The notes: generated by a model not told the origin, from the sequence alone. Positions 1,406 to 61,316 are shown, numbered from the stretch's first letter. The stretch: 64,000 nt of DNA from Gammaproteobacteria bacterium (GCA_026709505.1 JAPOSW010000128.1:20261-84260); one strand, 5' to 3'. Numbers and translations are program-made.

Positions 1406-3847
1406 TCAGTCATCTGAACGTGGTCGTCTGTTTTCCGGGTCAAACTGGGCATCAGCGATAACCGAAGCCCTTCGTGGCGTGTTGAGGACCAGAACTTCAA
1501 GCTCGGTACCCGGCAGTGCAAATTCAGGTTTCACATAGCCAAACGCCAGATACTGTCCGATTGCATAGCCATATCCTCCGGAAGAAATATGCCCGACCGG
1601 GAGATTTCCGTGAAGAACCGTTTCACCGCCCAATGGGTCGGCAATGGGTGCAGAATTATCCGGCTCTTCCAGCCTGAGATAGGCCAATTTCCAGCGCACG
1701 GCCTCAGCGGTTGAAATTCCCGCGCCCTGAAAGCCACGATCCCTCGAGAAGCGCATGACGCCTGCTTCGGATAGCGTCACCTCCGATGTTATCTCGTGGC
1801 CGGACCGATAGGCCTTTTCCATGCGCATGGCATTCAGCGAAGCAGAACCAGTGTGGACGATATCCTGACTGAGCGACGTGTTCATGAGGGCAGTATAAAC
1901 CTTGAGCATTTGATTCACGGGCACATGCAGCTCCCAGCCCAGTTCTCCAGAGTAGGCAACACGCATCGCCCTGATATTTTCAACCTCGCCGACCTTCATG
2001 GTCTGGGCAGACAGCCATCGAAAATTCGCATTGTGTAGATTGGCATCGGTGCATTCTGCGAGGATTCGGCGAGATGCCGGGCCGGCAAGCATGATGACCC
2101 CCAGTTTGCTGGAGACATTGGCAAGAGTGATGCTTTCATCATCGAGCTTTTGTGAATTCAGCCAATGGAACAGGTAAGCCTCCCGGGCTGCGGCATACAC
2201 CAGGTAATATCGATTTTCCCCGAGTTTGACAAGCGTGGTCTCGCCTTCAATCCTTCCATTTGCGGCAATGAGGTAAGTCAGAGAAATGCTGCCCCGTTTG
2301 GCAGGAATACGATTGGAGGAAATCCGGTTCAAATACTGGTCTGCATGCTCGCCGGATAGCTCAAGTTTTGAAAAAGCGCTCAAGTCGGCAATTCCGGCAT
2401 AGGCACGAAGCTGCCTGACCTCTTCTCCGACAACATCATGCAAGCGAGTCCTGGTGAAACTCTCGATATGCTGTTGAGGTATATTTCCTGTCGCATACCA
2501 GTAAGGCCTCTCCCATCCTCCGATATCCTGGTAGACCGCGCCTTTTTGCTTGAGAGCATCGTACAGGGGGGTCGTTTTCGAATGCGATGGACGACAACCC
2601 GGACGATCAAGGGCAGGGAACGGGATTTCGTGCCTCAGCAGGTAGTCTTCCCTGGCTTTTTCAATGCGGTAGGTATCGTCAAGCCGAGCCCCGAAACGCA
2701 TGGGGTCAAAGCTGTTCATTGAAATATCCGCTGCACCATGAGTCATCCACTGAGCCAGGTATTTTCCTGCACCCGGCCCCCAGGCAATGCCCACTTGCGA
2801 ACCGCAGCACAGCCAGTAGTTTGGAATCTTGCAGGGTCCCAGCAGCATGTTGCCATCCGGGGGATGGGTGATGGCGCCATGAACGACGCGGCGAATGCCA
2901 AGTTCGGCAAAGACCGGCATTCTTTCCATTGCATTTTCAAGCCAGGGCATAATTCTCCCGAAATCCGGTTCAAACAGTTCATTTTCCGATGCCCATGGGG
3001 TTCCCTGGTCCCACACGGTCGCTGCATTGGCTTTCTCGTAGATGCCGATCAATCCTGACTGCTGCTCCATGCGGATGTAGCCTGAAACTTTTTGATCATC
3101 CCTGACCACCGGGAGTTCCCGCTCAAGGCCCGCAAATTCCGGCACCGGCTCTGTCACCAGGTAATGGTGTAGAAGGTTGGCGATCGGAAGGTCAAGGCCC
3201 GCCCATGCGCCAACCTGGCGTGCATAGGCGCCAGCTGCGTTGACTACCCGTTCAGCAAGAATCTCGCCTTGCTCGGTTTGAATGCGGAATTCTCCGTTGC
3301 TGAGTATTTCCATCCCAATAGCGCGCCGGTTGCGCAAAATGCTGCACCCCATCATGCGCGCACCACGAGCCATGGCAAATGTCACCCCGGCTGGGTCAAC
3401 ATGACCATCGTCCGGCGTATGCAGGGCAGCCTTGACTCCATCAAGATTGTAGAAGGGGTGGAGCTCGCGAATCCTGTCCGGCTGGATAATTTCCATGTCA
3501 TGTCCGATGCCACGACCCATTGAGGCGGTGTAATGCAGCCAGTCCACCTCATCATCCAGGTAGGCAAGGCGCAGGCTTCCACAGCCATGCCAGCTGCAGG
3601 ACTGTCCGGTTTCACTCTCGAGTTGCGGATACAGCCCTGTCCCGTGGGAGGCCATCTTGGCCAGTGAATAATGACTGACAGAGTGAGTAATTTGGCCTGC
3701 CGCATGCCAAGTTGAACCGCTGGTCAGTTCGCCCTTTTCCAGCAATACAATATCGCTATCGCCTTCCTTGCAAAGGTGATAGGCGAGTGAGCAGCCCATG
3801 ATCCCGCCGCCAATAATCACGGTTCGTGCCTGAATCTGATTGGTCAT
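1406..3847 (-). CDS. FAD-dependent oxidoreductase fused to a GcvT-like folate-binding domain (dimethylglycine/sarcosine dehydrogenase family)
   Basis: N-terminal dinucleotide fold VIIGGGIMGCSLAYHL. About 810 aa, the DAO + aminomethyltransferase architecture. ATG at 3847 chosen just before the GxGxxG motif (ORF extends to 3874). Confidence 0.85.
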   Translation of the reverse strand: MTNQIQARTVIIGGGIMGCSLAYHLCKEGDSDIVLLEKGELTSGSTWHAAGQITHSVSHYSLAKMASHGTGLYPQLESETGQSCSWHGCGSLRLAYLDDEVDWLHYTASMGRGIGHDMEIIQPDRIRELHPFYNLDGVKAALHTPDDGHVDPAGVTFAMARGARMMGCSILRNRRAIGMEILSNGEFRIQTEQGEILAERVVNAAGAYARQVGAWAGLDLPIANLLHHYLVTEPVPEFAGLERELPVVRDDQKVSGYIRMEQQSGLIGIYEKANAATVWDQGTPWASENELFEPDFGRIMPWLENAMERMPVFAELGIRRVVHGAITHPPDGNMLLGPCKIPNYWLCCGSQVGIAWGPGAGKYLAQWMTHGAADISMNSFDPMRFGARLDDTYRIEKAREDYLLRHEIPFPALDRPGCRPSHSKTTPLYDALKQKGAVYQDIGGWERPYWYATGNIPQQHIESFTRTRLHDVVGEEVRQLRAYAGIADLSAFSKLELSGEHADQYLNRISSNRIPAKRGSISLTYLIAANGRIEGETTLVKLGENRYYLVYAAAREAYLFHWLNSQKLDDESITLANVSSKLGVIMLAGPASRRILAECTDANLHNANFRWLSAQTMKVGEVENIRAMRVAYSGELGWELHVPVNQMLKVYTALMNTSLSQDIVHTGSASLNAMRMEKAYRSGHEITSEVTLSEAGVMRFSRDRGFQGAGISTAEAVRWKLAYLRLEEPDNSAPIADPLGGETVLHGNLPVGHISSGGYGYAIGQYLAFGYVKPEFALPGTELEVLVLNTPRRASVIADAQFDPENRRPRSDD

Positions 3848-4014
3848 ACAAGGATATGCGGGGTGCAAAAACAATGCCGTGAATGATACACTCGTATCAA
3901 AATACAGGGCAAGTGTTCATTTGTCACATTTCAGCATTTTAATTGAAGCCGAACTGGCCTGGCAATGAATGACCACGAATCAATCTTGAAACGCGCGAGG
4001 TAATCACGAACCGT

Positions 4015-31385: not shown

Positions 31386-31388
31386 TGC

Positions 31389-32318: not shown

Positions 32319-32383
32319 GGTTTTCTCTACATGGATAGTGACTCAGAAAAACTGATCGTCATCGGCTTTCATCAATCCGCTGC

Positions 32384-39058: not shown

Positions 39059-39097
39059 GGGGTCATGGCAATCTAGCCAAATCGTTCGAATGCCGAA

Positions 39098-40309: not shown

Positions 40310-40555
40310 GTCGGTATTCTGTATTAAATTACACCCGTCAAAAATGCAGCGGCGGCAACCTCGGCTATATTATCTGTAATCACTACCTTGTTCAACTGCT
40401 GCGCTGTTCAGGGGATTTGTTTTGGCAATGACGCCATGACCTGTTGAGCTGGGCTTTGGACTCATCCATGCATTGTATTGAAAGAAGCAGGAATGGGTCT
40501 TCGATTTTCCAAATCCGAAAATGTAGTTTCTATCCGGAAAGTCATTGAGGCAAGC

Positions 40556-40901
40556 GGGAGTCGGTCGATAAGCCGGGTTCTGTCTTGGGCAGCCATTCAT
40601 CTGGAATACCTGTCACCAGATATTTCAAGCAACCTACCCGGATCCGATGCGGGCCACATCTTCAGGATCCCTATTTGGTCTTGCTCCAGGTGGGGTTTAC
40701 CCTGCCACTTCTGTTGCCAAAAGCGCGGTGCGCCCTTACCGCACCATTTCACCCTTACCTCCGAGAAATCCGAAGGCGGTATATTTTCTGTTGCACTAGC
40801 CGTCGATTCACATCGCCCAGGCGTTACCTGGCACCCTGCCCTGTGGAGCCCGGACTTTCCTCAATACCCTATTGGATACTGCGACTGCCTGGCCGACTCC
40901 C
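40556..40901 (-). ncRNA. rnpB: RNase P RNA, bacterial type A
   Basis: The minus strand reads GGGAGUCGGCCAGGCAGUCGC...GAGGAAAGUCCGGGCUCCACAGGGCAGGGUGCCAGGUAACGCCUGGG...GGUAAGGGUGAAAUGGUGCGGUAAGGGCGCACCGC...AGAUGAAUGGCUGCCCAAGACAGAACCCGGCUUAUCGACCGACUCCC. P1 pairs the two ends. All universal blocks match E. coli M1 RNA. Confidence 0.92.
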
Positions 40902-45615: not shown

Positions 45616-46596
45616 TCAGTTCAGAATCAAGGCAGGTCGTCTTTCGCCACTCGGCGGATAACTGAAATGTTCGCGATAGCACTTGCTGAAATGATTTGAA
45701 GAATTAAACCCGCAGGACATGGCAATTTCAGATACCAGCATATTGGTCTGCTGCAAGAGATGGCGGGCCTGAATCAGTCTGAGTCGCTTGTAGTATTCAA
45801 TCGGACTGCAGTTGAGGTACTTGCGAAACAGCCGTTCAAGCTGGCGCCTCGAGACGCCGATATGACCTGCGATTTCCTCAAGCTCCAGCAATTCCTCCTT
45901 GTTGGCCTCCATGTAGACCACGGCTTCGGCTAGCTTGGGCTGGCTACCGCCAAGCAAAATCCGCAGCGACGAGGGCTGTCGGTCGTTCTGGTCACGCACT
46001 CTCTCAAGCATGAACTCTTCGGCAACCTCGTTGGCCAAAACGGTTCCGTGATGTCGGGCTATAAGATATATCATCAAGTCCATCGAAGCAATGCCGCCTG
46101 CGCAGGTATAGCGATTGCGGTCGACCTTGAACAGCACAGGACTAACGATCAAGTCGGGAAACTTTTCCATCAGACTCGCCATATTCTCCCAGTGGATGGT
46201 GCATCGATAACCTCTCAGCAGGCCAGCTTCAGCCAAGATGTAGGAACCTGTACACAATGCGCCAATATTGACGTGTTTCTTGGCCTGCATGCGCAACCAG
46301 TCACGAACCGGCTTGCTGACGCAGTCCTCAATCTGGAGTCCACCGCATACAAATACGCCATCGAGCCGACCGCAGCGCTTGAGTTTGGCGACATTGAACT
46401 GAATTCCGCAACTGGAGGTCACGGGATGTTTGCCCTCGCCAAGCAATACCCATTCATAGAGTTCATCGTTTAACAACCGGTTGGCCATGCGCAGTGGGTC
46501 CAGAGCCGCCGCAAAGGGCGTCAGCGAAAACCCGGGAAGGAGCAGGAAACCATAGCGAGTGGTTCGATTACGTGATTCTGGAACCTGCATTGGCAA
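45616..46596 (-). CDS. GlxA-family (DJ-1/PfpI-like domain + AraC HTH) transcriptional regulator, same architecture as GbdR/CdhR/SouR
   Basis: N-terminus YGFLLLPGFSLTPFAAALDPLRMAN...LCTGSYILAEAGLL. C-terminal AraC HTH VSRRQLERLFRKYL..SPIEYY...R...A..LL..T...V.EIA..CGF.S..HFSK.YR. Divergent from the MttB gene. Confidence 0.85.
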   Translation of the reverse strand: MPMQVPESRNRTTRYGFLLLPGFSLTPFAAALDPLRMANRLLNDELYEWVLLGEGKHPVTSSCGIQFNVAKLKRCGRLDGVFVCGGLQIEDCVSKPVRDWLRMQAKKHVNIGALCTGSYILAEAGLLRGYRCTIHWENMASLMEKFPDLIVSPVLFKVDRNRYTCAGGIASMDLMIYLIARHHGTVLANEVAEEFMLERVRDQNDRQPSSLRILLGGSQPKLAEAVVYMEANKEELLELEEIAGHIGVSRRQLERLFRKYLNCSPIEYYKRLRLIQARHLLQQTNMLVSEIAMSCGFNSSNHFSKCYREHFSYPPSGERRPALILN

Positions 46597-46755
46597 ACAT
46601 GTTTAGAGCTTAGGCGGATTATCGCTATACTTCACGCATGACGCAATTCATTCTGAGCAAGTCGTAATAAAACACGAAAAGTTTTCGACATATTTCTATT
46701 ATCCGTTATTTGGACTCAGTTCAGAACCTTGTATTTTCATTCCTTTTCATTCGAC

Positions 46756-48285
46756 ATGCAGAAATCCACAAGAAAACGCAGCGGTCGCCGGAGTCGTCCC
46801 CAAACGCATAATCCCGAGCCCGCTGGCATTGCCTATCTCAATCGTCAGATCCCCGATACGCAGTTGTTGAATGCCGAGGGTCTTGAGCTGATTGAGCATA
46901 ATGCCGACACGATTCTTGAGGAAATCGGCATTGATTTCAGGTATGAGCCGGCAAAAAAACTGTTCAGGGCGGCTGGTGCAGAAATTGATGGTGACCGAAT
47001 CCGTTTTCCGCGAGGGATGTGTCGGGGCATTATTCAGGAGAGTGCACCCCGTGAATTCGAGCAGAAAGCCCGTAATCCAAAACGCAATGTAACGATTGGC
47101 GGCAATTCCACGGTGTTTGCACCGGTATATGGACCGCCATTTGTCAGGGACCTTGATCAAGGCCGGCGCTATGCGACGATTGAGGATTTCCGCAATTTCG
47201 TAAAACTGGCTTACCTGCTGCCCTCGCTCCACCATTCGGGGGGTACGGTTTGCGAGCCCACAGACGTGCCGGTCAACAAGAGGCATTTCGACATGGTTTA
47301 CAGCCATATTAAATACAGCGACAAGCCCTTCATGGGTTCAGTCACCCACCCTGAACGGGCCGAAGACTCGGTCGAGATGTGCAAAATCCTGTTTGGCGCG
47401 GACTATGTTGATCAGAATACGGTATTGGTGAATCTCATCAATGCCAATTCTCCGATGACTTTTGATGAGACCATGCTGGGCGCATCGGAAGTCTACGCAA
47501 GAAACAATCAGGCCAGTATTGTCTCGCCGTTTATCCTGTCGGGTGCCATGTCGCCGGTCACCGTGGCTGGAACCATGGCGCAAATTCTGGCCGAGGCACT
47601 GGCGGGAATCGCATTTACCCAGCTTGTTCGACCGGGATCGCCGGTTATCTTCGGGACCTTTTCAAGCTCGATTTCCATGCAATCCGGGGCACCCACATTC
47701 GGTACGCCTGAACCGGCACTGGTGATTTACGGCTGCGCTGAACTTGCGCGGCGTCTCGGGGTGCCTTTTCGAAGTGGCGGGTCGTTGTGCGGTTCAAAGA
47801 TCACGGATGCACAGGCTGCCTATGAAAGTTCAAGCACCTTGTTGCCGACAATGCTGGCGGGAGTCAATTTTGTCCTGCATGCTGCCGGCTGGTTAGAGGG
47901 CGGTCTTGTTTCAGGTTATGAAAAGTTGATCATGGATGCCGATCAGCTGGGCATGATGGGGGTATTTGCAGGCGGCTATGACCTCACGGAAAACGGCCAG
48001 GCATTGCGAGCGATTCGAGAAGTGGGGCCGGGATCGCATTATCTGGGCTGTGAACATACTCAGGATAATTTCAAGACTGCGTTCTATCGATCTTCAATTG
48101 CCGATAACAACAGTTTTGAGCAGTGGGAGCTTGAAGGCAGTCTGGATGCGACAGCCAGGGCGAATGCGATCTGGAAACGGATGCTGAACGAATACGAGGC
48201 GCCGCCAATAGATCCGGCGATTGATGAGGCATTGCTGGAATTTATCGAAACTCGAAAGAGTTCGTTTCTGGATGCCAATTATTGA
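46756..48285 (+). CDS. MttB-superfamily methyltransferase without pyrrolysine (quaternary-amine:corrinoid methyltransferase candidate)
   Basis: 510 aa uninterrupted ORF. Arg-rich N-terminus, then family-typical blocks (L..E.L..I...A..ILEEIG, NANSPM.FD, GA.SP.T.AG...Q..AE.LAG, LHAAGWLEGGL..S.EK...D). Confidence 0.85.
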   Translation: MQKSTRKRSGRRSRPQTHNPEPAGIAYLNRQIPDTQLLNAEGLELIEHNADTILEEIGIDFRYEPAKKLFRAAGAEIDGDRIRFPRGMCRGIIQESAPREFEQKARNPKRNVTIGGNSTVFAPVYGPPFVRDLDQGRRYATIEDFRNFVKLAYLLPSLHHSGGTVCEPTDVPVNKRHFDMVYSHIKYSDKPFMGSVTHPERAEDSVEMCKILFGADYVDQNTVLVNLINANSPMTFDETMLGASEVYARNNQASIVSPFILSGAMSPVTVAGTMAQILAEALAGIAFTQLVRPGSPVIFGTFSSSISMQSGAPTFGTPEPALVIYGCAELARRLGVPFRSGGSLCGSKITDAQAAYESSSTLLPTMLAGVNFVLHAAGWLEGGLVSGYEKLIMDADQLGMMGVFAGGYDLTENGQALRAIREVGPGSHYLGCEHTQDNFKTAFYRSSIADNNSFEQWELEGSLDATARANAIWKRMLNEYEAPPIDPAIDEALLEFIETRKSSFLDANY

Positions 48286-48484
48286 TCCCCGACATCCGAA
48301 ACAAGGCGTGCATCAATTCAGTCAAGCCTGAGAATATGGGCTTCACAGCTTTCCCATAATCATTTGTCTTGCCGCAACAGCCGAAGAAAAACCAATCGTG
48401 CAGTCACTGGTCTGGCAGCACGGGGAATAAGGGGCGGGAGATCCATATCCGGCAATTATCAGAGAAATTGGCAGACCTTGGATT

Positions 48485-50506
48485 TCAGGGGCGCTTTCTC
48501 CGTCTTCTCCGCCCATCACTTCCTGATTGACCGGTTATCGGCGCATCATCGGCTTGCGGCAATTTGACCTGTTGGGCGAGTTTCTCGAATCTATCTGATT
48601 GATGGGGTATGCCCAGTGCTTCTACAAAATACTCCTGGAATTTATCCTCGACTGCAGTCTCAATTTTCTGAATCTGTTTTACAGTGTGCTCGATTTCCTC
48701 CCTTGCATCGGTATCCAGTAGAGCAATGCTGGCTCCCTTTCCGGCTGCATTGCCTGCCGAAGTGACCTGAGATAATTCGCAGTCGGGAATCATTCCCAGG
48801 ACCATGGCATATTTCACGTCAATATGGGCGCCAAAGGCTCCGGCCAACCGGATGCGATCGACCTGATCTACACCCATCTTGTCCATCAGCAATCTGGCCC
48901 CGGCATACAGAGCCGCCTTGGCTAGCTGTATGGCCCGGACATCGTTTTGCGTGATCAGGATTCTCACCGTATCCCTCTCGAAGAGCACATAGCTCCAGGT
49001 TTTGCCGTCTTGAACAATCCGATCTGACCGCTTTGCCAGTTCACCGTTGATCATTCCGTTCTTCAGGATAATTCCACATAAAAACATCTCGGCGATAACT
49101 TCGATAATGCCTGAGCCGCAAATTCCGGTAATGCCGGTATTGCCGAACTTGTCGAAGAACCCTGCATGATCGGACCAGAGATCACATCCGATCACCTGAA
49201 ACCTTGGTGCAAGCGTCTCGGCATTAATGCGCACCCGTTCGATGGCACCGGGTGCTGCGCGCTGCCCACTGCTGATCTGTGCTCCTTCAAATGCCGGACC
49301 GGTCGGGCTTGATGCAGCCAGCATCCGTGAGCGGTTGCCCAGTACGATCTCGGCATTGGTCCCGACATCCACCAACAGGGTTAATTCGTCCTGCTGGTAA
49401 GGGGCTTCCGACAGGGTTGCTGCCGCAGCATCGGCTCCCACATGTCCTGCGATGCACGGCAATACGTAGGTGCGGGCACCCGGGTGCAGCTGGATGTCAA
49501 TGTCGGATGCCTTGATACTGACCGACCGATCAGTCGCAAGAGCAAATGGGGCACCGCCCAGTTCGATAGGATTAATGCCCAATAGCAGATGATGCATAAT
49601 GGGATTGCCTACGATTGTCATGTCAAGAATATCCCCAGTCTCGATTTTGGCGATTTCGCACAAGTCGGCAATTTGCCCTTGCACGGCCTCGCGAACTGCG
49701 CAGGTCATGTCGACCTCGCCACCGGGATTCATCATCACATAGGAGACACGGCTCATCAGATCCTCGCCAAATCGAATCTGAGGGTTCATGCGGCCAGTTG
49801 AAGCGATCGCCTCACCGCTTATCAGATCGTACAGGTGCGCGGCAATGGTTGTTGATCCAATATCTATCGAAACTCCGTATACGGTACTTTTAAAGCCCGG
49901 CCACAAAGCAATCACCTCCTGTGCTTGATGCACTGCAGCCGTGATCTTCCACTCTCCTTCTCGGAGCAAATGCTGCAGAACACCCAGTAACCCAAAATCA
50001 AACTTGAGATCGCTGAGTCCCCATTCGAATTCGAGCGCATCCAGAATACGCTCGATATCCCCGGAGGGATGGTGCATATCGGGTTCCTGAACCTCGACAT
50101 AATGCAGGCGAACTGCCGGATTGACGGTCATCTCGTGAACATCAAGACGCTTTCTGACAATCTGTCGATGCGCCTGGCTTTCCGGCGGGATATCGATTAC
50201 GGCATCACCCTGAAGCAGGGCCTGACAGCCGAGACGTCGAGTGGGCGAGATATCATCCAGAAAATATGCCTCCTCGCTTGACGTGTGCCCGGAGAGGTTT
50301 TCCGGCCTGGAGTGAATCTGAAACTTCGGGAACTCCCCAACGCTCAAATCGATCTGGCATCGATCACAAATTCCCCGACCGCCGCACACCGTGTCGAGGT
50401 CGACTCCAAGCTGCTGAGCGGCGGCGAGTACAGATTTGCCGCTTTGTATCTCTCCCCGCTTGCCTGATGGCGTGAAGACAACCTTCACGAACTCACGGTC
50501 TGTCAT
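48485..50506 (-). CDS. Reductive activator of corrinoid enzymes (RamA/RACo-like): plant-type 2Fe-2S ferredoxin domain + ASKHA ATPase domain
   Basis: N-terminal CGGRGICDRCQ...C cluster. ASKHA phosphate motifs SIDIGSTTIAAHL and LVDVGTNAEIVLG. 673 aa. Confidence 0.8.
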   Translation of the reverse strand: MTDREFVKVVFTPSGKRGEIQSGKSVLAAAQQLGVDLDTVCGGRGICDRCQIDLSVGEFPKFQIHSRPENLSGHTSSEEAYFLDDISPTRRLGCQALLQGDAVIDIPPESQAHRQIVRKRLDVHEMTVNPAVRLHYVEVQEPDMHHPSGDIERILDALEFEWGLSDLKFDFGLLGVLQHLLREGEWKITAAVHQAQEVIALWPGFKSTVYGVSIDIGSTTIAAHLYDLISGEAIASTGRMNPQIRFGEDLMSRVSYVMMNPGGEVDMTCAVREAVQGQIADLCEIAKIETGDILDMTIVGNPIMHHLLLGINPIELGGAPFALATDRSVSIKASDIDIQLHPGARTYVLPCIAGHVGADAAAATLSEAPYQQDELTLLVDVGTNAEIVLGNRSRMLAASSPTGPAFEGAQISSGQRAAPGAIERVRINAETLAPRFQVIGCDLWSDHAGFFDKFGNTGITGICGSGIIEVIAEMFLCGIILKNGMINGELAKRSDRIVQDGKTWSYVLFERDTVRILITQNDVRAIQLAKAALYAGARLLMDKMGVDQVDRIRLAGAFGAHIDVKYAMVLGMIPDCELSQVTSAGNAAGKGASIALLDTDAREEIEHTVKQIQKIETAVEDKFQEYFVEALGIPHQSDRFEKLAQQVKLPQADDAPITGQSGSDGRRRRRKRP

Positions 50507-50880
50507 GCTTCAGCGTCGAGACTCGGTAGTTCATGATAGTCGCTCATGTCTTCAACGAATATGTTCTGGATAGATTTGACATGAGTGGGGGGATCCAGAG
50601 TTCCTGCCATGATGCTTATCCTGTCACTCCGGTTAAGCTTCCAGAACAGGCTTGACCCGCATTGACTGCAAAAACCCCGTTGTGCGATTTCGGAGGAACG
50701 ATACCAGACGAGGGTTTTATCCTTCATGATTTCCAGTTGGTCCAGCGCACATTGTACCGCTGCCACATGATGCCCTGAGGTTTTTCGACATTGACTGCAG
50801 AAGCAGTTGATGACGCCGCGGATATCCCCGGCTATCCGATAGCTGATTTCACCGCATAGGCAGCTTCCTTTTCGAATCAT
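50503..50880 (-). CDS. GFA-family (glutathione-dependent formaldehyde-activating enzyme / CENP-V fold) zinc protein
   Basis: GSCLCGEISY...CFCSQCRK.SG...FCSQCGSSLFW Cys pattern. Stop overlaps the activator start (ATGA). Confidence 0.8.
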   Translation of the reverse strand: MIRKGSCLCGEISYRIAGDIRGVINCFCSQCRKTSGHHVAAVQCALDQLEIMKDKTLVWYRSSEIAQRGFCSQCGSSLFWKLNRSDRISIMAGTLDPPTHVKSIQNIFVEDMSDYHELPSLDAEA

Positions 50881-50901
50881 TGGACCGTCGGCCGAACCAC
50901 T

Positions 50902-51822
50902 TTACCCTACTGCTGCCCGGCGTCGTCGCCGCCCTGAACGTCCGGCCCGGGCTTCGGCGAACATGTCATGGACTACTGCCGGCTGACGGTATTTCCTGAG
51001 CCACCTTGCACAGTTTTGATCATGGCCCATAACCACGTTGGCTGCCATCACGCCCTGCATGACTTCTTCGTGAAGAGGGTTGGTAATCGCAGAGGTCATG
51101 CCTGCTCCGATGGCCATGCTGATGAAATGTCCATCCATGCCCTTGCGATTGGGAATGCCAAAGCTGAAATTGGATGCACCGCAGGTGGTGTTGACCTTGA
51201 GTTCCTCCCGCAAGCGTTTCACCAGATGCAAGACCTGGCGGCCTGCGCTGTTGACTGCCCCGACCGGCATCACCAGTGGATCGACCACGATATCGCTGTG
51301 ATGGATTCCATAATCGGCTGCCCGTTCGACGATTTTCCTGGCGACATCAAAGCGCTCGTCAGGGTTTTCGGAGATTCCTGCCTCATCGTTGGAGATGGCG
51401 ACCACGGCACAGCTGTACTTTGCGACCAGCGGCAGCACCGCCTCCAGACGTTCTTCCTCACCGGTGATTGAATTCAGCAAGGGTTTGCCCTGATAGACCT
51501 CAAGCCCTGCTTCAAGAGCTCCGACGATGGATGAGTCAATCGACAGCGGAACATCGGTTACTGACTGCACGAGCTGAATGCATTCGGCAAGGATTTTCGG
51601 TTCGTCGGCAAGCGGGATACCGGCATTGACGTCCAGCATGCCTGCACCAGCCTGCACCTGGGCTATTGCATCCTGTTCGACACGTGAATAGTCACCTTGT
51701 TTCATCTCCTCGGCAAGAATTTTCCTCCCGGTCGGATTAATGCGCTCGCCAATAATCATGAATGGCTGTTCAAAGCCAATGCGAACTTCGCGACTGGCTG
51801 AACTGATAACGGTATCGGTCAT
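50902..51822 (-). CDS. Pterin-binding methyltransferase (methyltetrahydrofolate:corrinoid methyltransferase, MetH pterin-domain/MeTr-like)
   Basis: IIGERINPTGRK, LDVNAG and a TIM-barrel length of 306 aa. Arg-rich C-terminal tail. Confidence 0.8.
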   Translation of the reverse strand: MTDTVISSASREVRIGFEQPFMIIGERINPTGRKILAEEMKQGDYSRVEQDAIAQVQAGAGMLDVNAGIPLADEPKILAECIQLVQSVTDVPLSIDSSIVGALEAGLEVYQGKPLLNSITGEEERLEAVLPLVAKYSCAVVAISNDEAGISENPDERFDVARKIVERAADYGIHHSDIVVDPLVMPVGAVNSAGRQVLHLVKRLREELKVNTTCGASNFSFGIPNRKGMDGHFISMAIGAGMTSAITNPLHEEVMQGVMAANVVMGHDQNCARWLRKYRQPAVVHDMFAEARAGRSGRRRRRAAVG

Positions 51823-51890
51823 AACAAGGCTCCGGATTTGTCGGTGTAGATCAGTAAAATTTAATTATCGGGTCATGCTGCCCAATCCTC

Positions 51891-52205
51891 TTACTGGCTT
51901 TTTTTCAATGGTTCTTCATGCCCACATCGTTGGACCAGGCCTTTCAGGCGGTCCGTATGGTATTCCTGTTCAATGCGGGATGCGGCCGCTTCAACTTCTG
52001 ACTTCAAGTCATCACTACAGGGGACTGATACGCGGCGCCACTCTTGAAGATAGGCATCTGTCCCTGAAAGACCTGCACGCATCGCTGCAGCATCGATGGC
52101 GATGGCGAATCTATTGCTCAATTCGAGTTTTTCTGCCTGTCGACGCTGTTTCGCCATGACCTGAGCGGGAATGTCTCTCCAGAATACGGTTACAAGATCG
52201 GTCAT
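51891..52205 (-). CDS. Small conserved protein that accompanies corrinoid methyltransferase clusters ('virulence factor'-annotated family, by recollection)
   Basis: 104 aa. N-terminal VTVFWRDIPAQVMAK...AIDAAAMRAGLSGTDAYLQEWRR matches what I recall for this family. Function unknown. Confidence 0.5.
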   Translation of the reverse strand: MTDLVTVFWRDIPAQVMAKQRRQAEKLELSNRFAIAIDAAAMRAGLSGTDAYLQEWRRVSVPCSDDLKSEVEAAASRIEQEYHTDRLKGLVQRCGHEEPLKKSQ

Positions 52206-52217
52206 GGTCGTCGGTCC

Positions 52218-52865
52218 TTATGCTTGCGAATCGGCTACACGGCCAAAATCGTTGACGACAACCTTGAGTGAGTCGTTCAGCCCGGTGTCGCCCGTGAATT
52301 CCTGTTCGAACGCAAGCCCGAGAAACTCGGCTGCCTGGCGGGCCTTGTGTTCGGTTTTCGAATTTTGTTTCTGGGCGAGATAGATCAGTTTGCTGTAGTG
52401 TCCGAAGTACTGGTCCTTGAGCTCGGGATATCGATCGATTCCGAGTCCACTGACAATCAACCGATCGAAATTGCTGGCTAGATAATCAGTCAGGTAAAAG
52501 GTGCCGATTTCATATTCATGCAGGGCATTGAATTTTTCGGCCCCTGCGAATAGTTCATAGCAATGGGCACCGGGCAGTCGCTCGATGCCCTCTTGCTCAA
52601 TCACCTTGTCGAGCAGTCCTCCGGTTCCACAATCTGCATATCCGATGAAGATTTTGGAGAAATGATCCCGGTTCTCGCGGATTTTCTTCCGAACAGCCTC
52701 GGGGATTTTCTCCGGATAATTGTGCAACGCTGCTGGCAGGCACTGGAATTCGATATGGTTCCAGTTATTCAAGTCGCGCACTCGCACGAGTTCATGAGCA
52801 AGGGCGCCACAGGCAATCACCAGCAGCTTCCCGTTTGCACAATCTGAATGCTGTTCAGGCTGCAC
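52218..52865 (-). CDS. DUF1638-family protein
   Basis: LLVIACGALAHEL...GYADCGTGG...CYE resembles DUF1638. Start uncertain: GTG 52865 gives an 11-nt overlap with the corrinoid gene, while ATGs at 52913, 52928 and 52958 overlap more. Confidence 0.6.
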   Translation of the reverse strand: MQPEQHSDCANGKLLVIACGALAHELVRVRDLNNWNHIEFQCLPAALHNYPEKIPEAVRKKIRENRDHFSKIFIGYADCGTGGLLDKVIEQEGIERLPGAHCYELFAGAEKFNALHEYEIGTFYLTDYLASNFDRLIVSGLGIDRYPELKDQYFGHYSKLIYLAQKQNSKTEHKARQAAEFLGLAFEQEFTGDTGLNDSLKVVVNDFGRVADSQA

Positions 52866-53550
52866 GCTTCTCAGCGATTTTTGCTTGTGCCGTCTCAACG
52901 GCAACCGCAGCATCCCGACAATAGGCATCGGCACCGATAGCCTTGCCAAACTCTTCATTCAGGGGGGCCCCGCCGACCAGCACGATATAGTCTTCGCGAA
53001 TCCCCTGTTCGACCAGGGTATCGATCACGACTTTCATGTAGGGCATGGTGGTGGTCAACAGTGCAGACATGCCCAGTATATCGGGCCGGTGCTGTTCAAG
53101 AGCCTCAAGATAGTTCTCGACCGGATTGTCAATGCCGAGATCAATGACTTCGAAGCCTGCGCCTTCCATCATCATGGACACCAGATTCTTGCCGATGTCA
53201 TGGATATCCCCTTTGACGGTGCCGATCACCATCTTGCCAATCGGTTCTGCGCCGGTTTCAGCCAGCAAGGGACGGAGGATTTTCATGCCGCCTTTCATGG
53301 CATTGGCAGACATCAGGACTTCGGGAACGAACAGTATGCCGTCCCGGAAATCGATACCGACAATGCGCATGCCTTCAACAAGCGCCTCATCAAGCACCCT
53401 GGTTGCGGCCCAGCCGCGATCGAGCAGTATCTGTGTGCCTTCGATAATCTCGTCACGCAGACCATCATAGAGATCATCATGCATCTGCTCTACCAGTTCT
53501 TCATCTGACAGGGCAGACAGGTCAATATCATCGTATTCTTCTTCGCTCAT
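52855..53550 (-). CDS. Corrinoid (cobalamin-binding) protein, MtgC/MetH B12-domain-like
   Basis: B12 cap helix region, then the Rossmann B12 domain with DxHxxG (VKGDIHDIGKNLV) and SALLTTT. Strongly acidic N-terminus. Confidence 0.85.
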   Translation of the reverse strand: MSEEEYDDIDLSALSDEELVEQMHDDLYDGLRDEIIEGTQILLDRGWAATRVLDEALVEGMRIVGIDFRDGILFVPEVLMSANAMKGGMKILRPLLAETGAEPIGKMVIGTVKGDIHDIGKNLVSMMMEGAGFEVIDLGIDNPVENYLEALEQHRPDILGMSALLTTTMPYMKVVIDTLVEQGIREDYIVLVGGAPLNEEFGKAIGADAYCRDAAVAVETAQAKIAEKRAA

Positions 53551-54226
53551 CGTGGCTACCCATACGAAAAAATAACCGAAAACCAAGACCACTGCGGAGG
53601 TATTCGCAAGCCCGAGGCATTTTTTGGAATATACAAATCCGCTATCATTTCGATATGTCCATTTGCGACAATAAAAACGGATTTTACGACTCTATATTGA
53701 AGATTCCTTGAATTTTCCGAACTATTTTGAAAAGATTATCATTAATTTGAAAATACGAAACCGGCGTGGACCTGTTTTCGGCAATTTCATCGAAGGTCAT
53801 GCTGCAGCGCACACGGGATTCAAGTTATCCAATGACTGCTTCGAGAGGGTCACGGAATCATACAGGGTATCGAGGGTGCTTTCGGGTTTTCCATTTACGG
53901 ATTGGGGCATACCGCCAATATTGCAAGGTAAAAAGCCAAACAGACCGGAGGCGATACCATGCAGCTAACACCAGCGGAAATAACCCTGTTGATCAACCAG
54001 CACAAAATTCTGAAAATTCTTGATCCTGAGAGGCATCGCCATGCCAGACCCCGACAATGAGGCCTGAAGTCGCCGGAGAATGTTTTCCCTCCCGGACGCT
54101 GGGAAGCATCAGGCAGTGCTTCGCCAGCGGTGGCGTGTTTCTGAGTCATGCCGCAGAACAATATGAAAAAATGGGTGATGGGCTGTTGATGCTTGACCCT
54201 GTCGTGAACAATAGGCCGGGGATTTA

Positions 54227-54526
54227 TGGTGCGGGCGGAGGGAGTCGAACCCTCACTGCCATCTGGCAAACGGATTTTCGTACCAGCTACGATTTGCACC
54301 GCCCTCATGATTCGAGGTTTGTGGTCTGGACTATCCCTTCACCCTAGCTGTTTGCCTTAGGTGCTGCCCGTCTAGTCTCTACACCTTCCCGTTCGAAATC
54401 GGGCTTGGCTCGGGATTGCCATATTCCAGGTTTTTCCGAGTTTGAGCAGTTCTACATTTCCGGTTTCCCGAAAAGCACTCAAATTATAATTAAGTCCGTT
54501 GCGTCTACCGATTCCGCCACGCCCGC
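54227..54526 (-). tRNA. tRNA-Leu(UAA) gene interrupted by a group I intron. Exons 54526-54492 and 54278-54227; CCA encoded.
   Basis: The joined exons give GCGGGCG-UG-GCGGAAUCGGUAGACGC-A-ACGGA-CUUAAAA-UCCGU-UUGCCAGAUGGCAGU-GAGGG-UUCGACU-CCCUC-CGCCCGC-ACCA. This has a 7-bp acceptor stem, a 5-bp anticodon stem, a long variable arm and a canonical T loop. Confidence 0.9.
54279..54491 (-). ncRNA. Group I intron (IC3-like), 213 nt, no ORF, inserted between U34 and A35 of the anticodon
   Basis: Core strings CUCAAACUCGGAAAAACCU, GGCAAUCCCGAGCCAAGCC, GAAGGUGUAGAGACUAGACGGGCAGCACCUAAGGCAAAC and GGGAUAGUCCAGAC. Terminal G (54279) immediately before the 3' exon. 5' exon ends in U. Confidence 0.85.
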
Positions 54527-57225: not shown

Positions 57226-58281
57226 TTGACCATACTGCCTGAACTTCTCAAGGAACGCGGAGTCCTGCTCGCTGACGGGGCGACTGGATCGAACCTGTTC
57301 AAAATGGGTCTGCAGTCCGGGGATGCCCCAGAATTGTGGAATGACTTGTTTCCGGATCGTATTGCGGCCAACTACCGGAGCTTCATTGAGGCGGGTTCGG
57401 ATATTATTCTGACCAATACATTCGGCGGTAACCGGTTTCGCCTTGGACTTCACGATTCGTCAGATCGAGTTCATGAGCTCAATGTAAAGGCCGCCAGCAT
57501 CGCGAAGGCTGAGGTCAATAAAGCCTCAAAGCGAATTATCGTCGCCGGTTCAATCGGGCCCACCGGCGAAATTCTGGAACCACTCGGTTCACTCAGTATC
57601 GAAAGCGCGGCGGAAGTATTCGCTGAACAGGCCCTGGCACTCGAAGAGGGAGGCGTCGACTTGCTCTGGATCGAAACCATGTCTTCGCTCGAAGAGGCCA
57701 CAGCAGCACTGCAGGGAGTCGCCGCATGCAGCCTGCCATCGGTCCTCACCTTCAGTGTGGATACCAATGGCCGAACCATGATGGGGCTGACCCCTGCCGA
57801 CATTATCAGGTTCGCATCCGAAACCCTGCATAGACCTCAGGCCGTCGGTGCTAATTGCGGGATTGGCGCCGCCGATCTTGTCGCCAGCCTGATCAACATG
57901 CATCATGCAGCCAAGGACCTTTCCATCCCGATAATCGTCATCGCCAAGGCAAACTGCGGCGTCCCGGAATACATTGACGGCGAGATTGTCTACAGCGGGA
58001 CCGAGGAAGTCATGTCGGACTACGCCTGTATTGCCATGGATGCCGGAGCCAGAATCATCGGCGGCTGTTGCGGTACTACACCCAGCCATATCCGCGCAAT
58101 GCGCAAGGCTATTGACAGGCACCAGACAGGCGAGTTGCCCGATATCGACAAAATCGAGGCCAGCTTGGGTACAATCACTGCAGGAGCTCGCTCACAGATG
58201 CTCGGAGACCTGAGCATCGCCGGCGGTGCAAAACGCCCGCCACGAGAACGCAAATCAAGACGCTCTCGTCGTGATGCATGA
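57226..58281 (+). CDS. Homocysteine S-methyltransferase family protein (MetH Hcy-domain / BHMT-like, zinc-dependent)
   Basis: VLLADGATGSNLF, TNTFGGN, the Zn ligands ANCG and IGGCCGTTPSHI. Arg-rich C-terminal tail. TTG start in the ORF track. Confidence 0.8.
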   Translation: MTILPELLKERGVLLADGATGSNLFKMGLQSGDAPELWNDLFPDRIAANYRSFIEAGSDIILTNTFGGNRFRLGLHDSSDRVHELNVKAASIAKAEVNKASKRIIVAGSIGPTGEILEPLGSLSIESAAEVFAEQALALEEGGVDLLWIETMSSLEEATAALQGVAACSLPSVLTFSVDTNGRTMMGLTPADIIRFASETLHRPQAVGANCGIGAADLVASLINMHHAAKDLSIPIIVIAKANCGVPEYIDGEIVYSGTEEVMSDYACIAMDAGARIIGGCCGTTPSHIRAMRKAIDRHQTGELPDIDKIEASLGTITAGARSQMLGDLSIAGGAKRPPRERKSRRSRRDA

Positions 58282-60223: not shown

Positions 60224-60428
60224 CGATGTTCTCCCTTTTGCGCGTATCTGGGCTATCGTCAGCCCAGTTAAAAATCACAAGGAAGTTCATAACAGTATTG
60301 CCCTTGTGCACTGCTTGGATTTTAGCCCATATGCCGAAAATCTGAAAAGCCATTTAGAGACCCGGGGAATCCAGTCACAGATGTCGATGCACCCTTTTGA
60401 TTTAATCAACCGCCAGCCTGATAACACT

Positions 60429-61316
60429 ATGAGCACCGTAATTGATGGAAAAGCATTTGCCGAAACACTTCGCTCCCGCATAAAAAAAGCGGTCAGCGAA
60501 CTTCAGGCAAAACATGATATTGTGCCCGGACTCGCAGTCGTTCTGGTTGGCGAAAATTCAGCAAGCCAGATCTACGTCAGGTCCAAAGCGCGCCAGACCG
60601 CTGAGGCCGGCATGCAATCCTTTGAGCATCGGCTGCCGGAAAACACTTCAGAAAGCGAACTCGTCCAGCTAGTCGAAGAACTCAATCGGAACCCGCAAGT
60701 GAACGGCATTCTTGTTCAGCTTCCGCTCCCTGCTCAAATCAATTCAGAACGCATCATCAACACCGTCAACGTGAACAAGGACGTTGACGGTTTTCATGTC
60801 GAAAGCACGGGTCGCCTGTCTATCGGCATCGATTCACTGGTGCCCTGTACGCCCGCAGGCTGTCTAATGCTGCTCAAACAAGCGGTCGGTGACCTAACCG
60901 GACAACATGCGGTCATTATTGGCCGATCAAATATCGTCGGCAAGCCAGTCGCCCAGCTATTGCTCAAAGAACACTGCACCGTCACAATAGCCCATTCAAG
61001 AACCCGTGACCTACCCTCGGCATGTCGTCAGGCAGATATTGTGATTGCTGCTGTGGGAGTACCTGAAATGGTCAAAGGCGATTGGATCAAGCCCGGAGCA
61101 ACCGTCATCGATGTTGGGATTAACCGAGTTGCCGATAACTCAGGAAAAAGCAAACTGGTCGGAGATGTCGACTATGCGTCCGCCTCGGAGGTGGCTGGGG
61201 CAATCACGCCCGTACCGGGCGGAGTGGGCCCGATGACTATTGCATGCCTGCTTCAGAATACGATCATCGCAACCTGCCGGCAGCGACAGATCAAATTACC
61301 GGAAGCAATCAGCTAG
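60429..61316 (+). CDS. folD: Bifunctional 5,10-methylene-THF dehydrogenase / methenyl-THF cyclohydrolase
   Basis: [62 protein letters not shown] 60429 chosen (ORF extends to 60306). Confidence 0.9.

Follow-up and report, generated by a model that had tools for sequence, protein, structure and literature searches.

The 64,000-nucleotide stretch of gammaproteobacterial DNA analyzed here (the window) contains a gene for a pyrrolysine-free MttB-family methyltransferase beside an operon for corrinoid-dependent methyl transfer, which raises the question of what substrate such a module demethylates, and where the methyl groups go, in an apparently aerobic host. The region probably encodes an MtgBCD(E)-type cobalamin methyltransferase system of an aerobic, sponge-associated gammaproteobacterium, with glycine betaine as the most likely substrate and a dual role in methionine synthesis.

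Open reading frames were found, at the positions given, for all eight genes in which a preliminary description of this DNA had recognized a complete corrinoid methyl-transfer module around a pyrrolysine-free MttB, and profile searches, proposed there as a check, matched every predicted family with strong scores, all six core families scoring high (Table 1). The conserved small protein of about 100 residues noted in that description proved to be a member of PF13769, and the presence of a GFA zinc protein within the operon was borne out. The module had been drawn too narrowly, however, as a functionally linked homocysteine S-methyltransferase gene was left outside, 3.6 kb from the corrinoid gene. 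Within the six-gene operon, the corrinoid and DUF1638 genes overlap by 11 nt, gaps of 12, 68 and 21 nt separate DUF1638 from PF13769, PF13769 from the pterin methyltransferase (MeTr) and MeTr from GFA, and GFA and RACo share a 4-nt ATGA overlap at the RACo start. The mttB gene faces this operon in convergent orientation across a 199-nt gap, and it diverges from the regulator gene. The automated GFA gene call on the source contig, of 87 aa, is too short; a 125-aa reading frame regains the N-terminal CxC motif and spans nearly the whole Pfam model. FolD is a probable downstream C1-oxidation step, weakly linked and by proximity only, while the DAO + GCV_T flavoenzyme, encoded 43 kb away, is a candidate for the next demethylation step.

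Table 1. Predicted genes of the methyl-transfer module and associated genes, in window coordinates
Predicted product	Coordinates	Strand	Match or remark
GbdR-like GATase1(DJ-1/PfpI)-AraC regulator	45616..46590	-	HTH_18, HTH_AraC, DJ-1_PfpI in Pfam search
Non-pyrrolysine MttB-family methyltransferase, MtgB-like	46756..48285	+	PF06253, 761 bits
RACo/RamA-like ATP-dependent reductive activase, [2Fe-2S] + ASKHA	48485..50506	-	RACo_linker, Raco_middle, RACo_C_ter
GFA/CENP-V-family zinc protein	50503..50880	-	PF04828, 73 bits
Pterin-binding methyl-corrinoid:tetrahydrofolate methyltransferase, MtgD-like	50902..51822	-	PF00809, 97 bits
PF13769 ('Virulence_fact') protein, 104 aa	51891..52205	-	PF13769, 75 bits
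DUF1638 protein	52218..52865	-	PF07796, 98 bits
Corrinoid (cobalamin-binding) protein, MtgC-like	52855..53550	-	B12-binding_2 + B12-binding, DxHxxG motif
Stand-alone homocysteine S-methyltransferase, Bmt/MtgE type	57226..58281	+	PF02574, 216 bits
FolD, methylene-THF dehydrogenase/cyclohydrolase	60306..61316	+	THF_DHG_CYH + THF_DHG_CYH_C; link by proximity only
DAO + GCV_T flavoenzyme, dimethylglycine/sarcosine dehydrogenase-like	1406..3874	-	DAO, GCV_T, GCV_T_C

The MttB protein is 509 aa long from its ATG, or 518 aa from an upstream TTG, and its reading frame contains no in-frame TAG codons and therefore specifies no pyrrolysine. It shares 68.8% identity with PDB 4YYC and 45.8% with MtgB of Desulfitobacterium hafniense. 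The protein has more than 120 cluster relatives with at least 75% identity, and orthologues with 67 to 90% identity were found in 80 genomes, among them those of the cultured aerobes Sinorhizobium, Inquilinus, Afifella and Denitromonas; the protein belongs to a tightly conserved proteobacterial clade. Picking et al. (2026, PMC13080624) validated four residues of MtgB, Y97, R312, H348 and F356, as those that contact glycine betaine. Three of these four are kept in MttB, as Y125, R339 and H375, each conserved in 202 to 203 of the 203 clade members. F356 is replaced by Gly383, a change seen clade-wide, and Y355 by Gly382. A tryptophan invariant in the clade, W379, lies at position i-4 to Gly383, where MtgB has I352, and it is our speculation that W379 stands in for the missing F356 contact. 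The substrate had previously been regarded as unknown; residue, synteny and orthology evidence favors glycine betaine, and the enzyme is predicted to act on a betaine-type compound with a carboxylated quaternary amine structure, of which glycine betaine is the most likely.

There is a smaller but appreciable chance that the same architecture serves another such amine, be it proline betaine, carnitine, gamma-butyrobetaine or a sponge betaine (homarine or trigonelline). R312 and H348 are kept also in MtcB, MtpB, MthB and MtyB (PMC13080624) and so mark only an acidic substrate, which, like the clade-wide change of F356 to glycine, is compatible with these amines; Y97, by contrast, is kept here, and the aromatic pair to which it belongs is not kept in those four enzymes (PMC13080624). 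MttB paralogues of differing specificity are common, with up to 7 per genome (PMC12478193), carnitine is present in sponges (PMC9999580), and the three Rieske oxygenases, BKACE cluster and hydantoinase of the window could belong with a different substrate. On the other hand, an identity of 67 to 90% among orthologues from Alpha-, Beta- and Gammaproteobacteria points to a single, ubiquitous substrate, and the closest curated match of the regulator was GbdR (best NCBIfam match, 394 bits; equivalog cutoff, 480). In 21 of 80 loci a homologue of this regulator is encoded no more than 10 kb from the MttB orthologue.

The surroundings of the orthologues also argued for glycine betaine over the other amines. 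The same collinear block was linked to MttB orthologues in ∼35 of 80 genomes, indicating that the gene arrangement is not due to chance, and the order Corr-DUF1638-PF13769-MeTr-RACo was strictly collinear in ∼24 of 33 loci containing a corrinoid gene, as well as in divergent clusters. The MttB clade is physically embedded in an MtgC/MtgD/RACo operon. In most relatives the operon begins with mttB, whereas here it forms a separate, convergent transcription unit. In Sinorhizobium sp. CB7, whose MttB is 90% identical to PDB 4YYC, mttB lies within a Corr-DUF1638-PF13769-MetV-MetF-MeTr-RACo cluster that adjoins a Bmt gene and a ProV-like ABC(CBS) transporter. In 30 of 80 loci the MttB orthologue has next to it a family-level homologue of the dimethylglycine dehydrogenase-like (DAO-GCV_T) protein, though with only 25 to 46% identity. 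Weighing the other way, the DAO-GCV_T gene lies 43 kb away here, and the 64-kb window contains no betaine transporter of the BCCT or OpuA type.

A system of this type has been demonstrated genetically and by proteomics in the aerobe Ruegeria pomeroyi (Mausz et al. 2025, PNAS, PMC12478193), and the earlier statement that non-Pyl MttB enzymes come from strict anaerobes alone is therefore outdated. The R. pomeroyi system demethylates glycine betaine and, as a split MetH, also makes methionine; deletion of mtgC or mtgD abolished methionine prototrophy as well as growth on glycine betaine, and both proteins were needed for glycine-betaine catabolism even when methionine was supplied, while MtgB was assigned by proteomics only, the deletions being those of mtgC and mtgD alone (PMC12478193). 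MtgBCD is reported from marine members of the Alpha-, Gamma- and Deltaproteobacteria, frequently in operons with reactivation genes, and such operons are explicitly noted for the Gammaproteobacteria (PMC12478193). By its family content, the present module appears to be the MtgBCD(E) + RamA-like + DUF1638 system already described in 2025 in aerobic marine bacteria. With the system of Ruegeria pomeroyi DSS-3, Phaeobacter inhibens and Sinorhizobium meliloti it shares an aerobic host and the families PF06253 (MtgB), corrinoid MtgC (B12 cap + B12 domain), PF00809 (MtgD), PF02574 (MtgE), [2Fe-2S]-DUF4445/RACo activase and DUF1638. In contrast to the scattered genes of R. pomeroyi and P. inhibens, six genes here form one operon, in which a GFA gene is interposed between those for MtgD and RACo. 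Further differences are that mttB converges on the operon instead of being co-transcribed with it, and that MetF2/MetVF is absent from the operon and window.

All of the modules of classical MetH (homocysteine, pterin, B12-cap and B12) are represented at this locus by three separate proteins, MetH models matching MtgE, MtgD and MtgC at 135 to 152 bits each. The Bmt/MtgE-type protein scored 448 bits against NCBIfam PRK07534 (cutoff, 338) and 16 of 80 loci, that of Sinorhizobium among them, encode a homologue no more than 10 kb from the MttB orthologue; the protein probably supplies the homocysteine-binding module that completes the split MetH. The pterin methyltransferase scored 364 bits against PRK07535 (cutoff, 259). 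By contrast with classical MetH, no AdoMet-binding reactivation domain (PF02965) was detected here, and reactivation would follow an ATP-dependent RACo-type route. A split MetH, raised in the preliminary description as an alternative to a betaine system, thus appears to be the other half of the same system, given the nearby Bmt/MtgE-type gene. The MetVF genes usual in related operons are missing from the operon of this lineage, a feature newly observed here. No MetF or MetV was found in the 64-kb window or ∼14 kb of flanking sequence to account for the catabolic fate of CH3-THF, a point against the favored reading; methyl groups may go mainly to methionine or be oxidized via a MetF encoded elsewhere.

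It is unlikely that the operon is essentially a split cobalamin methionine synthase plus the factors that reactivate it (MtgC, MtgD, RACo, DUF1638 and the nearby MtgE), mttB being an unrelated or dispensable neighbor. Such a role is served by the P. inhibens homologues (PMC5764234) and would agree with the proximity of the MtgE/Bmt-type gene and the lack of MetVF for CH3-THF oxidation, but not with the linkage of the block to MttB orthologues, usually with mttB as first gene, nor with the requirement for R. pomeroyi MtgC and MtgD on glycine betaine despite a methionine supply (PMC12478193). That mttB here lies outside the operon with its own regulator can be read either way, as a dedicated GbdR-like regulator beside mttB argues for an inducible catabolic function. 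A genuine trimethylamine methyltransferase system, as implied by the automated name 'trimethylamine methyltransferase family protein' in the source databases, by membership of Pfam MTTB and by an Rfam PYLIS_3 match inside the gene (39.4 bits; gathering score, 38), is highly improbable in view of the absent UAG and hence pyrrolysine, the TIGR02369 score of 262 bits (cutoff, 525), the mere 119 bits to the Pyl-containing MttB structure 7XCL against 436 to MtgB, and the occurrence of the PYLIS_3 match in all non-Pyl orthologues, which indicates coding-sequence homology.

The favored MtgBCD(E)-type system can be set beside other characterized systems. Like D. hafniense MtgABC (Ticak et al. 2014; Picking et al. 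2026; PDB 2QNE, 9YCE), it would pair a non-Pyl MttB with a cognate corrinoid protein, transfer methyl groups to THF and employ a RamA-type activase, but D. hafniense is a strict anaerobe. Apart from the MtgB substitutions described above, the corrinoid protein, with its DIHDIG motif (DxHxxG) at residue 115, falls below the curated MtgC cutoffs (best NCBIfam match MtgC_2, 210 bits; cutoff, 370). The present THF methyltransferase belongs to the PF00809/AcsE-MetH type, which, to our knowledge, does not include D. hafniense MtgA. MtgA is described as having no sequence identity to known structures. The pyrrolysine MttB/MttC/RamA system of methanogens likewise combines an enzyme of the MTTB TIM-barrel fold with a corrinoid protein bearing DxHxxG and with an ATP-dependent activase; its pyrrolysine-containing MttB is distant, however, it uses coenzyme M rather than THF or homocysteine as methyl acceptor, and its RamA carries [4Fe-4S] clusters, unlike the [2Fe-2S] RACo-like activase here (TIGR04270, 111 bits; cutoff, 500). 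Carboxydothermus hydrogenoformans RACo (3ZYY, 4C1N) has the same succession of N-terminal [2Fe-2S] domain, linker, middle domain and ASKHA ATPase, and the activase aligned to it full-length (3ZYY, E = 8e-85), scored 398 bits against NCBIfam AcsV and carries the [2Fe-2S] motif CGGRGICDRC. The partner of that RACo is CoFeSP, whereas here it would be a small MtgC-type corrinoid protein, in an aerobic host and with DUF1638 and PF13769 genes alongside.

The closest genome was a Ca. Poriferihabitans MAG in which the gene order is the same, and an ankyrin-repeat protein is encoded on the contig; the host appears to be an aerobic, sponge-associated (symbiont) gammaproteobacterium. O2-dependent enzymes were present as previously stated, the window encoding three Rieske/Ring_hydroxyl_A oxygenases, a DAO + GCV_T flavoenzyme, PdxH and a dihaem cytochrome c, together with uncharacterized catabolic genes (the BKACE cluster and hydantoinase). 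The Rieske proteins were ruled out as GbcA orthologues, as they scored ∼150 bits where the cutoff is 670 and aligned over the Rieske N terminus only; a coexisting oxygenase route for the same substrate, suggested earlier for methylated amines, is consequently not supported.

In the proposed mechanism, the GbdR-like regulator would turn on mttB upon sensing a betaine-type inducer, and the MtgB-like MttB, judging from homology and residues, would bind a carboxylated quaternary amine, glycine betaine being the likeliest, and move one N-methyl to Co(I) of the MtgC-like protein, yielding dimethylglycine. The MtgD-like enzyme would pass the methyl from CH3-Co(III) to tetrahydrofolate, feeding C1 metabolism. 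In reverse, MtgD would load MtgC from CH3-THF and the MtgE-type protein would methylate homocysteine, so that the same core could double as a split methionine synthase, genetic proof of which comes from the R. pomeroyi homologues only. Co(I) is easily oxidized to inactive Co(II), the more so in an oxic cell, and the RACo-RamA-like [2Fe-2S]/ASKHA activase, by homology to the characterized enzyme, would re-reduce it at the expense of ATP, presumably with help from DUF1638 and the PF13769 protein.

The role of DUF1638 had been called uncharacterized, which holds for its biochemical mechanism but not for its genetics, as evidence from other bacteria implicates it in cobalamin reactivation: a P. 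inhibens DUF1638 mutant is a methionine auxotroph cofit with split MetH (Price et al. 2018, PMC5764234). RamA-like mutants of P. inhibens are also methionine auxotrophs (PMC5764234), and RamA and DUF1638 are induced on N-osmolytes in R. pomeroyi (Mausz et al. 2025, PMC12478193). Residues C19, C42, H48, C79, H101 and C102 of DUF1638 were invariant in the close clade; comparison of its AF2 model (pLDDT, 83) with the PDB found no structural analogue, and structure comparison found no solved analogue of the PF13769 protein. The PF13769 gene was present and collinear in 31 loci, and also collinear in divergent clusters. It is a collinear core member of the Corr-DUF1638-PF13769-MeTr-RACo block, newly recognized here; neither the R. 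pomeroyi paper (Mausz et al. 2025) nor the P. inhibens paper (Price et al. 2018) mentions it. Fusions of PF13769 to DUF1638 (P0449; on two contigs that stem from two sequencing runs) and to the N terminus of [2Fe-2S]-RACo (P0395; one contig) tie it to corrinoid reactivation, and we propose that it is a partner of the reactivation proteins. Weighing against such a role, the P. inhibens fitness screen did not single out PF13769 (PMC5764234), and one of the two fusion types rests on a single 977-bp contig.

The GFA protein scored only 21 bits against the true Gfa model TIGR02820 (cutoff, 234) and matched PDB 8AJQ, a CENP-V/GFA protein (E = 3e-8). Only 11 of 80 loci have a GFA gene close to that of the MttB orthologue, and its position varies among them. 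GFA is thus a lineage-variable accessory outside the core, a feature newly seen here, and may be involved in thiol or formaldehyde handling.

All eight genes of the preliminary description were recovered where it had placed them, and profile searches returned strong family scores for each (see the table). One of them, the conserved small protein of roughly 100 aa, matched the Pfam family PF13769 ('Virulence_fact'). The six minus-strand genes form an operon convergent on mttB, with junctions of -11, +12, +68, +21 and -4 nt, the last being an ATGA overlap. The activase aligned over its full length with the RACo protein of C. hydrogenoformans (3ZYY; E = 8e-85) and contains the features of the RACo/RamA group, namely, an N-terminal Fe-S domain and an ASKHA ATPase (DUF4445/RACo_C_ter). 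Among the NCBIfam profiles, the top curated match of the regulator was Pseudomonas GbdR, with a score of 394 bits. As this score is below the equivalog cutoff of 480, the putative regulator is termed only GbdR-like and not a demonstrated GbdR orthologue, though it shares the domain architecture of GbdR and has this protein as its best match. A functionally linked gene was detected outside the region first described. Its product, a homocysteine S-methyltransferase (MtgE-like), scored above the cutoff of the NCBIfam 'betaine-homocysteine S-methyltransferase' model of Sinorhizobium type (PRK07534; 448 bits, cutoff of 338) and, together with the corrinoid and pterin-binding proteins, supplies all the modules of a split MetH. 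Also present in the neighbourhood were folB, folK and FolD. A histone-deacetylase-family (acetylpolyamine amidohydrolase-like) gene (58323-59264, plus strand) begins 41 nt after the MtgE-like gene, and these two genes may be co-transcribed. The module is real, complete and non-random.

Features of the methyl-transfer locus and its surroundings (window coordinates)
Feature	Position	Strand	Characteristics
Regulator	45616-46590	-	DJ-1/PfpI domain and AraC HTH; divergent from mttB
MttB	46756-48285	+	509 aa; PF06253, 761 bits; zero in-frame TAG
RACo-type activase	48485-50506	-	Three RACo Pfam domains; CX5CX2C [2Fe-2S] motif
GFA-domain protein	50503-50880	-	Broad PF04828 domain match alone
Pterin-binding methyltransferase	50902-51822	-	PF00809, 97 bits; PRK07535, 364 bits (cutoff, 259); stand-alone, MtgD type
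PF13769 'Virulence_fact'	51891-52205	-	104 aa; profile match
DUF1638	52218-52865	-	Profile match; same operon as RamA-like activase
Corrinoid protein	52855-53550	-	PF02607 (B12 cap) and PF02310 (B12 domain); DIHDIG motif; stand-alone, MtgC type
tRNA-Leu(UAA)	54227-54526	-	Exons 54526-54492 and 54278-54227; intron 54491-54279
Homocysteine S-methyltransferase (MtgE, S. meliloti Bmt type)	57226-58281	+	PF02574, 216 bits; stand-alone

The preliminary description took characterised non-Pyl MttB systems to come only from strict anaerobes, a premise that is outdated by work on the aerobe Ruegeria pomeroyi (PMC12478193). Methionine prototrophy of this organism depends on both MtgC and MtgD, as does its growth on glycine betaine (Mausz, PNAS 2025, PMC12478193). 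N-osmolytes induce MtgB1 and MtgB2 (both PF06253) together with RamA and DUF1638 (PMC12478193). A classical MetH is usually absent where aerobic bacteria carry this MtgBCD(E) system (Mausz 2025, PMC12478193). In P. inhibens, the three-part methionine synthase is cofit with a RamA-like protein and with DUF1638, and methionine rescues mutants of the latter two (Price 2018, PMC5764234). In the sponge Aplysina aerophoba, transcripts of non-Pyl mttB have been recorded (PMC9999580). As such systems are described in these reports, the locus is assigned, from its sequence, to the known system published in 2025. MtgC, MtgD, a non-Pyl PF06253 MtgB, MtgE, a RamA-like protein and DUF1638 were all present in the window, whereas the MetF2/MetVF component of that system, used for CH3-THF oxidation, was detected neither in the window by tblastn nor in ~14 kb of contig flanks. 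The locus adds a gammaproteobacterial lineage of sponge symbionts to the known range of the MtgBCD system, in the form of a compact operon that would be handy for heterologous reconstitution. MtgBCD has recently been recognised as a dominant aerobic pathway, one that also couples vitamin B12 demand to methionine synthesis. In exchanges of animals or algae with their bacteria, glycine betaine and similar osmolytes serve as major currencies of carbon, nitrogen and methyl groups.

MetV (DUF5981) and MetF are encoded between PF13769 and the pterin-binding methyltransferase in 21 related loci. In the sponge-symbiont clade, to which the window belongs, the operon is without MetV-MetF. Either CH3-THF is oxidised via a gene located elsewhere in the genome or the methyl groups pass mainly to methionine through MtgE. 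In lineages without MetVF, this sponge symbiont among them, an MtgB-MtgC-MtgE relay may function as a cobalamin-dependent shuttle of methyl groups from betaine to methionine.

The clade of MttB is large and tightly conserved, comprising over 120 90%-clusters with at least 75% identity. Orthologues with 67-90% identity were found in the genomes of 80 species of Alpha-, Beta- and Gammaproteobacteria, cultured aerobes included. The protein is 68.8% identical to PDB entry 4YYC, itself 90% identical to MttB of Sinorhizobium sp. CB7. In the latter strain, mttB lies in a cluster ordered corrinoid protein-DUF1638-PF13769-MetV-MetF-methyltransferase-RACo, adjoined by a Bmt gene and a ProV-like ABC(CBS) transporter. 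Identity to the biochemically validated MtgB of D. hafniense was 45.8%, while the match to Pyl-containing MttB was far weaker (119 bits). A Pyl-dependent trimethylamine methyltransferase was rejected, there being no in-frame UAG and a TIGR02369 score of 262 bits against a cutoff of 525. A match to Rfam PYLIS_3 at 47785-47884 (plus strand) exceeded the gathering score, as it did in every orthologue checked (L002 to L005, four of the compared loci). Since mttB has no UAG, this match is attributed to coding-sequence homology, and its recurrence in all the non-Pyl orthologues led to its dismissal as a functional element. Both PYLIS_3 matches and 'trimethylamine methyltransferase' annotations are misleading in such genomes, the former being a likely source of false 'pyrrolysine' annotations.

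The assessment of substrate relies on residue signatures from Picking 2026 and on synteny. In D. hafniense MtgB, mutagenesis and a ligand-bound structure identified Y97 and F356 as pi-cation contacts of glycine betaine and R312 and H348 as contacts of the carboxylate (Picking, JBC 2026, PMC13080624). These residues were mapped onto MttB, once the numbering had been confirmed, and were scored across 203 clade members. Both carboxylate contacts, R339 (R312 of MtgB) and H375 (H348), were conserved in 203/203 members and Y125 (Y97) was conserved in 202, such that three of the four contacts are present in the window protein. At the fourth position, F356 is replaced by G383; adjacent changes are Y355 to G382 and I352 to an invariant W379. 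The aromatic pair Y97 and F356 is not kept in MtcB, MtpB, MthB or MtyB (Picking 2026, PMC13080624). The main rival reading is that MttB acts on another carboxylated betaine. It is a matter of speculation that W379, located one turn upstream (i-4) of G383, restores the aromatic cage. Additional support for glycine betaine came from synteny, with DMGDH-like genes flanking the MttB orthologue in 30 of the 80 loci and GbdR-like regulators doing so in 21. On this evidence, we consider with moderate confidence that glycine betaine is the most likely substrate of MttB. The clade-wide change of the pocket (F356 to Gly with I352 to Trp) is explained by no paper and provides a testable lead.

Among the 80 loci, all those with the block keep the order corrinoid protein-DUF1638-PF13769-(MetV-MetF)-methyltransferase-RACo in strict collinearity, with ~24 complete blocks among the 33 loci having a corrinoid gene. 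MttB was mostly the first gene of the block and on the same strand. Divergent PF13769 homologues occurred in the same block beside MTHFR, GMC oxidoreductase, ETF and DAO genes. PF13769 is a core component of the block. In one divergent cluster (L083, 8306-8864), three tandem 62-aa ORFs without a Pfam match were observed between PF13769 and the methyltransferase gene. No mention of PF13769 was found in the literature searched or in the text and available supplements of Mausz 2025.

An exhaustive profile search yielded 1,232 representatives of PF13769, almost all of which were stand-alone proteins of ~100 aa. Two fusions were detected. P0449 consists of DUF1638 and PF13769 connected by a low-complexity linker and is present on two contigs from two sequencing runs; in P0395, encoded on a single 977-bp contig, PF13769 is joined to the [2Fe-2S]/linker N terminus of RACo. 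As both of these fusion partners are reactivation proteins, we infer that PF13769 acts with DUF1638 and RACo. A more tentative proposal, which we regard as possible rather than probable, is that PF13769 is an unrecognised third component of corrinoid reductive reactivation, working with DUF1638 and the RACo/RamA-like activase to enable cobalamin methyltransferases in oxic cells. If so, this machinery would serve both glycine-betaine demethylation and the split MetH under oxic conditions. The conserved partnership of PF13769 with DUF1638 and RACo is a lead open to experiment for which the literature offers no explanation.

Within the close clade of DUF1638, residues C19, C42, H48, C79, H101 and C102 were invariant, and all except C42 were retained in the distant fusion protein. 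An AF2 model of DUF1638 (pLDDT 83) placed C19, C42 and C79 at or just past the C-terminal ends of the first three strands, which suggests that the Cys and His residues may form a metal or cofactor site. This conserved constellation is a further testable lead, again one that no paper explains. Sequence searches of the PDB gave zero matches for either DUF1638 or PF13769. Foldseek searches of the PDB with the AF2 models of both proteins (pLDDT ~82) produced only generic alpha/beta matches (best E = 3e-3 and TM = 0.30 for DUF1638; E = 0.1 for PF13769), and the folds gave no function.

The GFA-domain protein is a lineage-variable accessory. Only 11 of the 80 loci have it close to the MttB orthologue, in variable positions; placement between the methyltransferase and RACo was restricted to the sponge clade, while elsewhere the gene follows RACo or DMGDH or separates MttB from the corrinoid protein. 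A true Gfa (S-(hydroxymethyl)glutathione synthase) was rejected on a TIGR02820 score of 21 bits (cutoff of 234). The protein may plausibly act in the handling of thiols or formaldehyde. On the source contig, automated annotation had shortened this gene to 87 aa; the complete ORF of 125 aa regains the N-terminal CLC motif and spans 2-114 of the 115 positions in the Pfam model. In locus L050, an unannotated 114-aa ORF (4079-4423) occupies the slot between the methyltransferase and RACo where the window has GFA. No mention of 8AJQ was found in the literature searched.

By homology to characterised enzymes, MttB would methylate Co(I)-MtgC from a betaine. MtgD would exchange the methyl group between MtgC and THF, given its homology and the R. 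pomeroyi genetics. MtgE would methylate homocysteine, given its homology and the P. inhibens genetics. Any Co(II) formed would be re-reduced by RACo with ATP, as expected from homology to the characterised enzyme. DUF1638 and PF13769 may help in this reactivation, the former having genetic support elsewhere and the latter synteny and fusions only. The regulator may sense a betaine-type inducer, a suggestion drawn from family resemblance only.

The window forms part of a metagenomic contig of 101.8 kb (ENA ERZ27276890). The best genome match for MttB was at 90% identity in a 'Candidatus Poriferihabitans' MAG, whose genes are arranged in the same way, with MsbA, the regulator and GFA in place; MAGs of Ca. 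Spongiihabitans and Poriferihabitaceae came next. The host is a gammaproteobacterium associated with sponges. Poriferihabitans was not mentioned in the literature searched. A 139-aa ankyrin-repeat protein is encoded at about 10929-11348 (minus strand; 16915-17334 in L085). Such proteins are eukaryote-like and typical of sponge symbionts, and its presence is consistent with the host assignment.

The window also encodes three Rieske oxygenases, PdxH, a dihaem cytochrome c and, at 1406-3874, a DAO+GCV_T protein resembling dimethylglycine/sarcosine dehydrogenases, indicating that the host uses O2. The preliminary description had proposed that oxygenase routes for methylated amines coexist with the corrinoid route. 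The oxygenases and cytochrome c bear out an O2-using host, but none of the Rieske proteins qualifies as a GbcA orthologue (~150 bits; cutoff of 670). The 1226-aa ORF at 14301-17981 (plus strand) was considered as a MetH and proved to be a hydantoinase A/B fusion of the oxoprolinase/N-methylhydantoinase family. It shares the window with the 1406-3874 gene and could function in creatinine or hydantoin catabolism feeding sarcosine. A cluster at 29653-34272 (minus strand) encodes a 3-hydroxyacyl-CoA-dehydrogenase-like protein, two SDRs, a BKACE protein and a Rieske oxygenase and is adjoined by a Liv-type ABC transporter (35697-40309, minus strand). The idea that the segment at 29653-33145 forms a carnitine dehydrogenase and dehydrocarnitine-cleavage route to glycine betaine was dropped as unsupported: the dehydrogenase fell under the carnitine-dehydrogenase cutoffs, and BKACE passed another model, the NCBIfam 3,5-dioxohexanoate:acetyl-CoA acetone transferase (492 bits; cutoff of 430).

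The 1.2-kb gap upstream of the operon contained no cobalamin riboswitch or other RNA element at Rfam gathering scores. Scans for promoter and terminator consensus sequences were uninformative, with fewer matches than in shuffled sequence. The gap contains an intron-bearing tRNA-Leu(UAA) gene, which ARAGORN missed in the genomic sequence and called as tRNA-Leu(taa) from the spliced exons. The 213-nt group I intron (Rfam RF00028, 52.2 bits, E = 2e-10) is inserted between U34 and A35, the classic cyanobacterial/plastid position. A similar intron was reportedly found in a gamma-proteobacterium in 2002. The Ca. Poriferihabitans MAG (L002) carries the same intron-bearing gene, 90% identical over 340 nt, and the syntenic tRNA-Leu(UAA) of Ca. 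Spongiihabitans (L003) was without an intron. A bacterial class A RNase P RNA was detected at 40553-40900 (minus strand; 342 bits) and was syntenic in the Ca. Poriferihabitans MAG.
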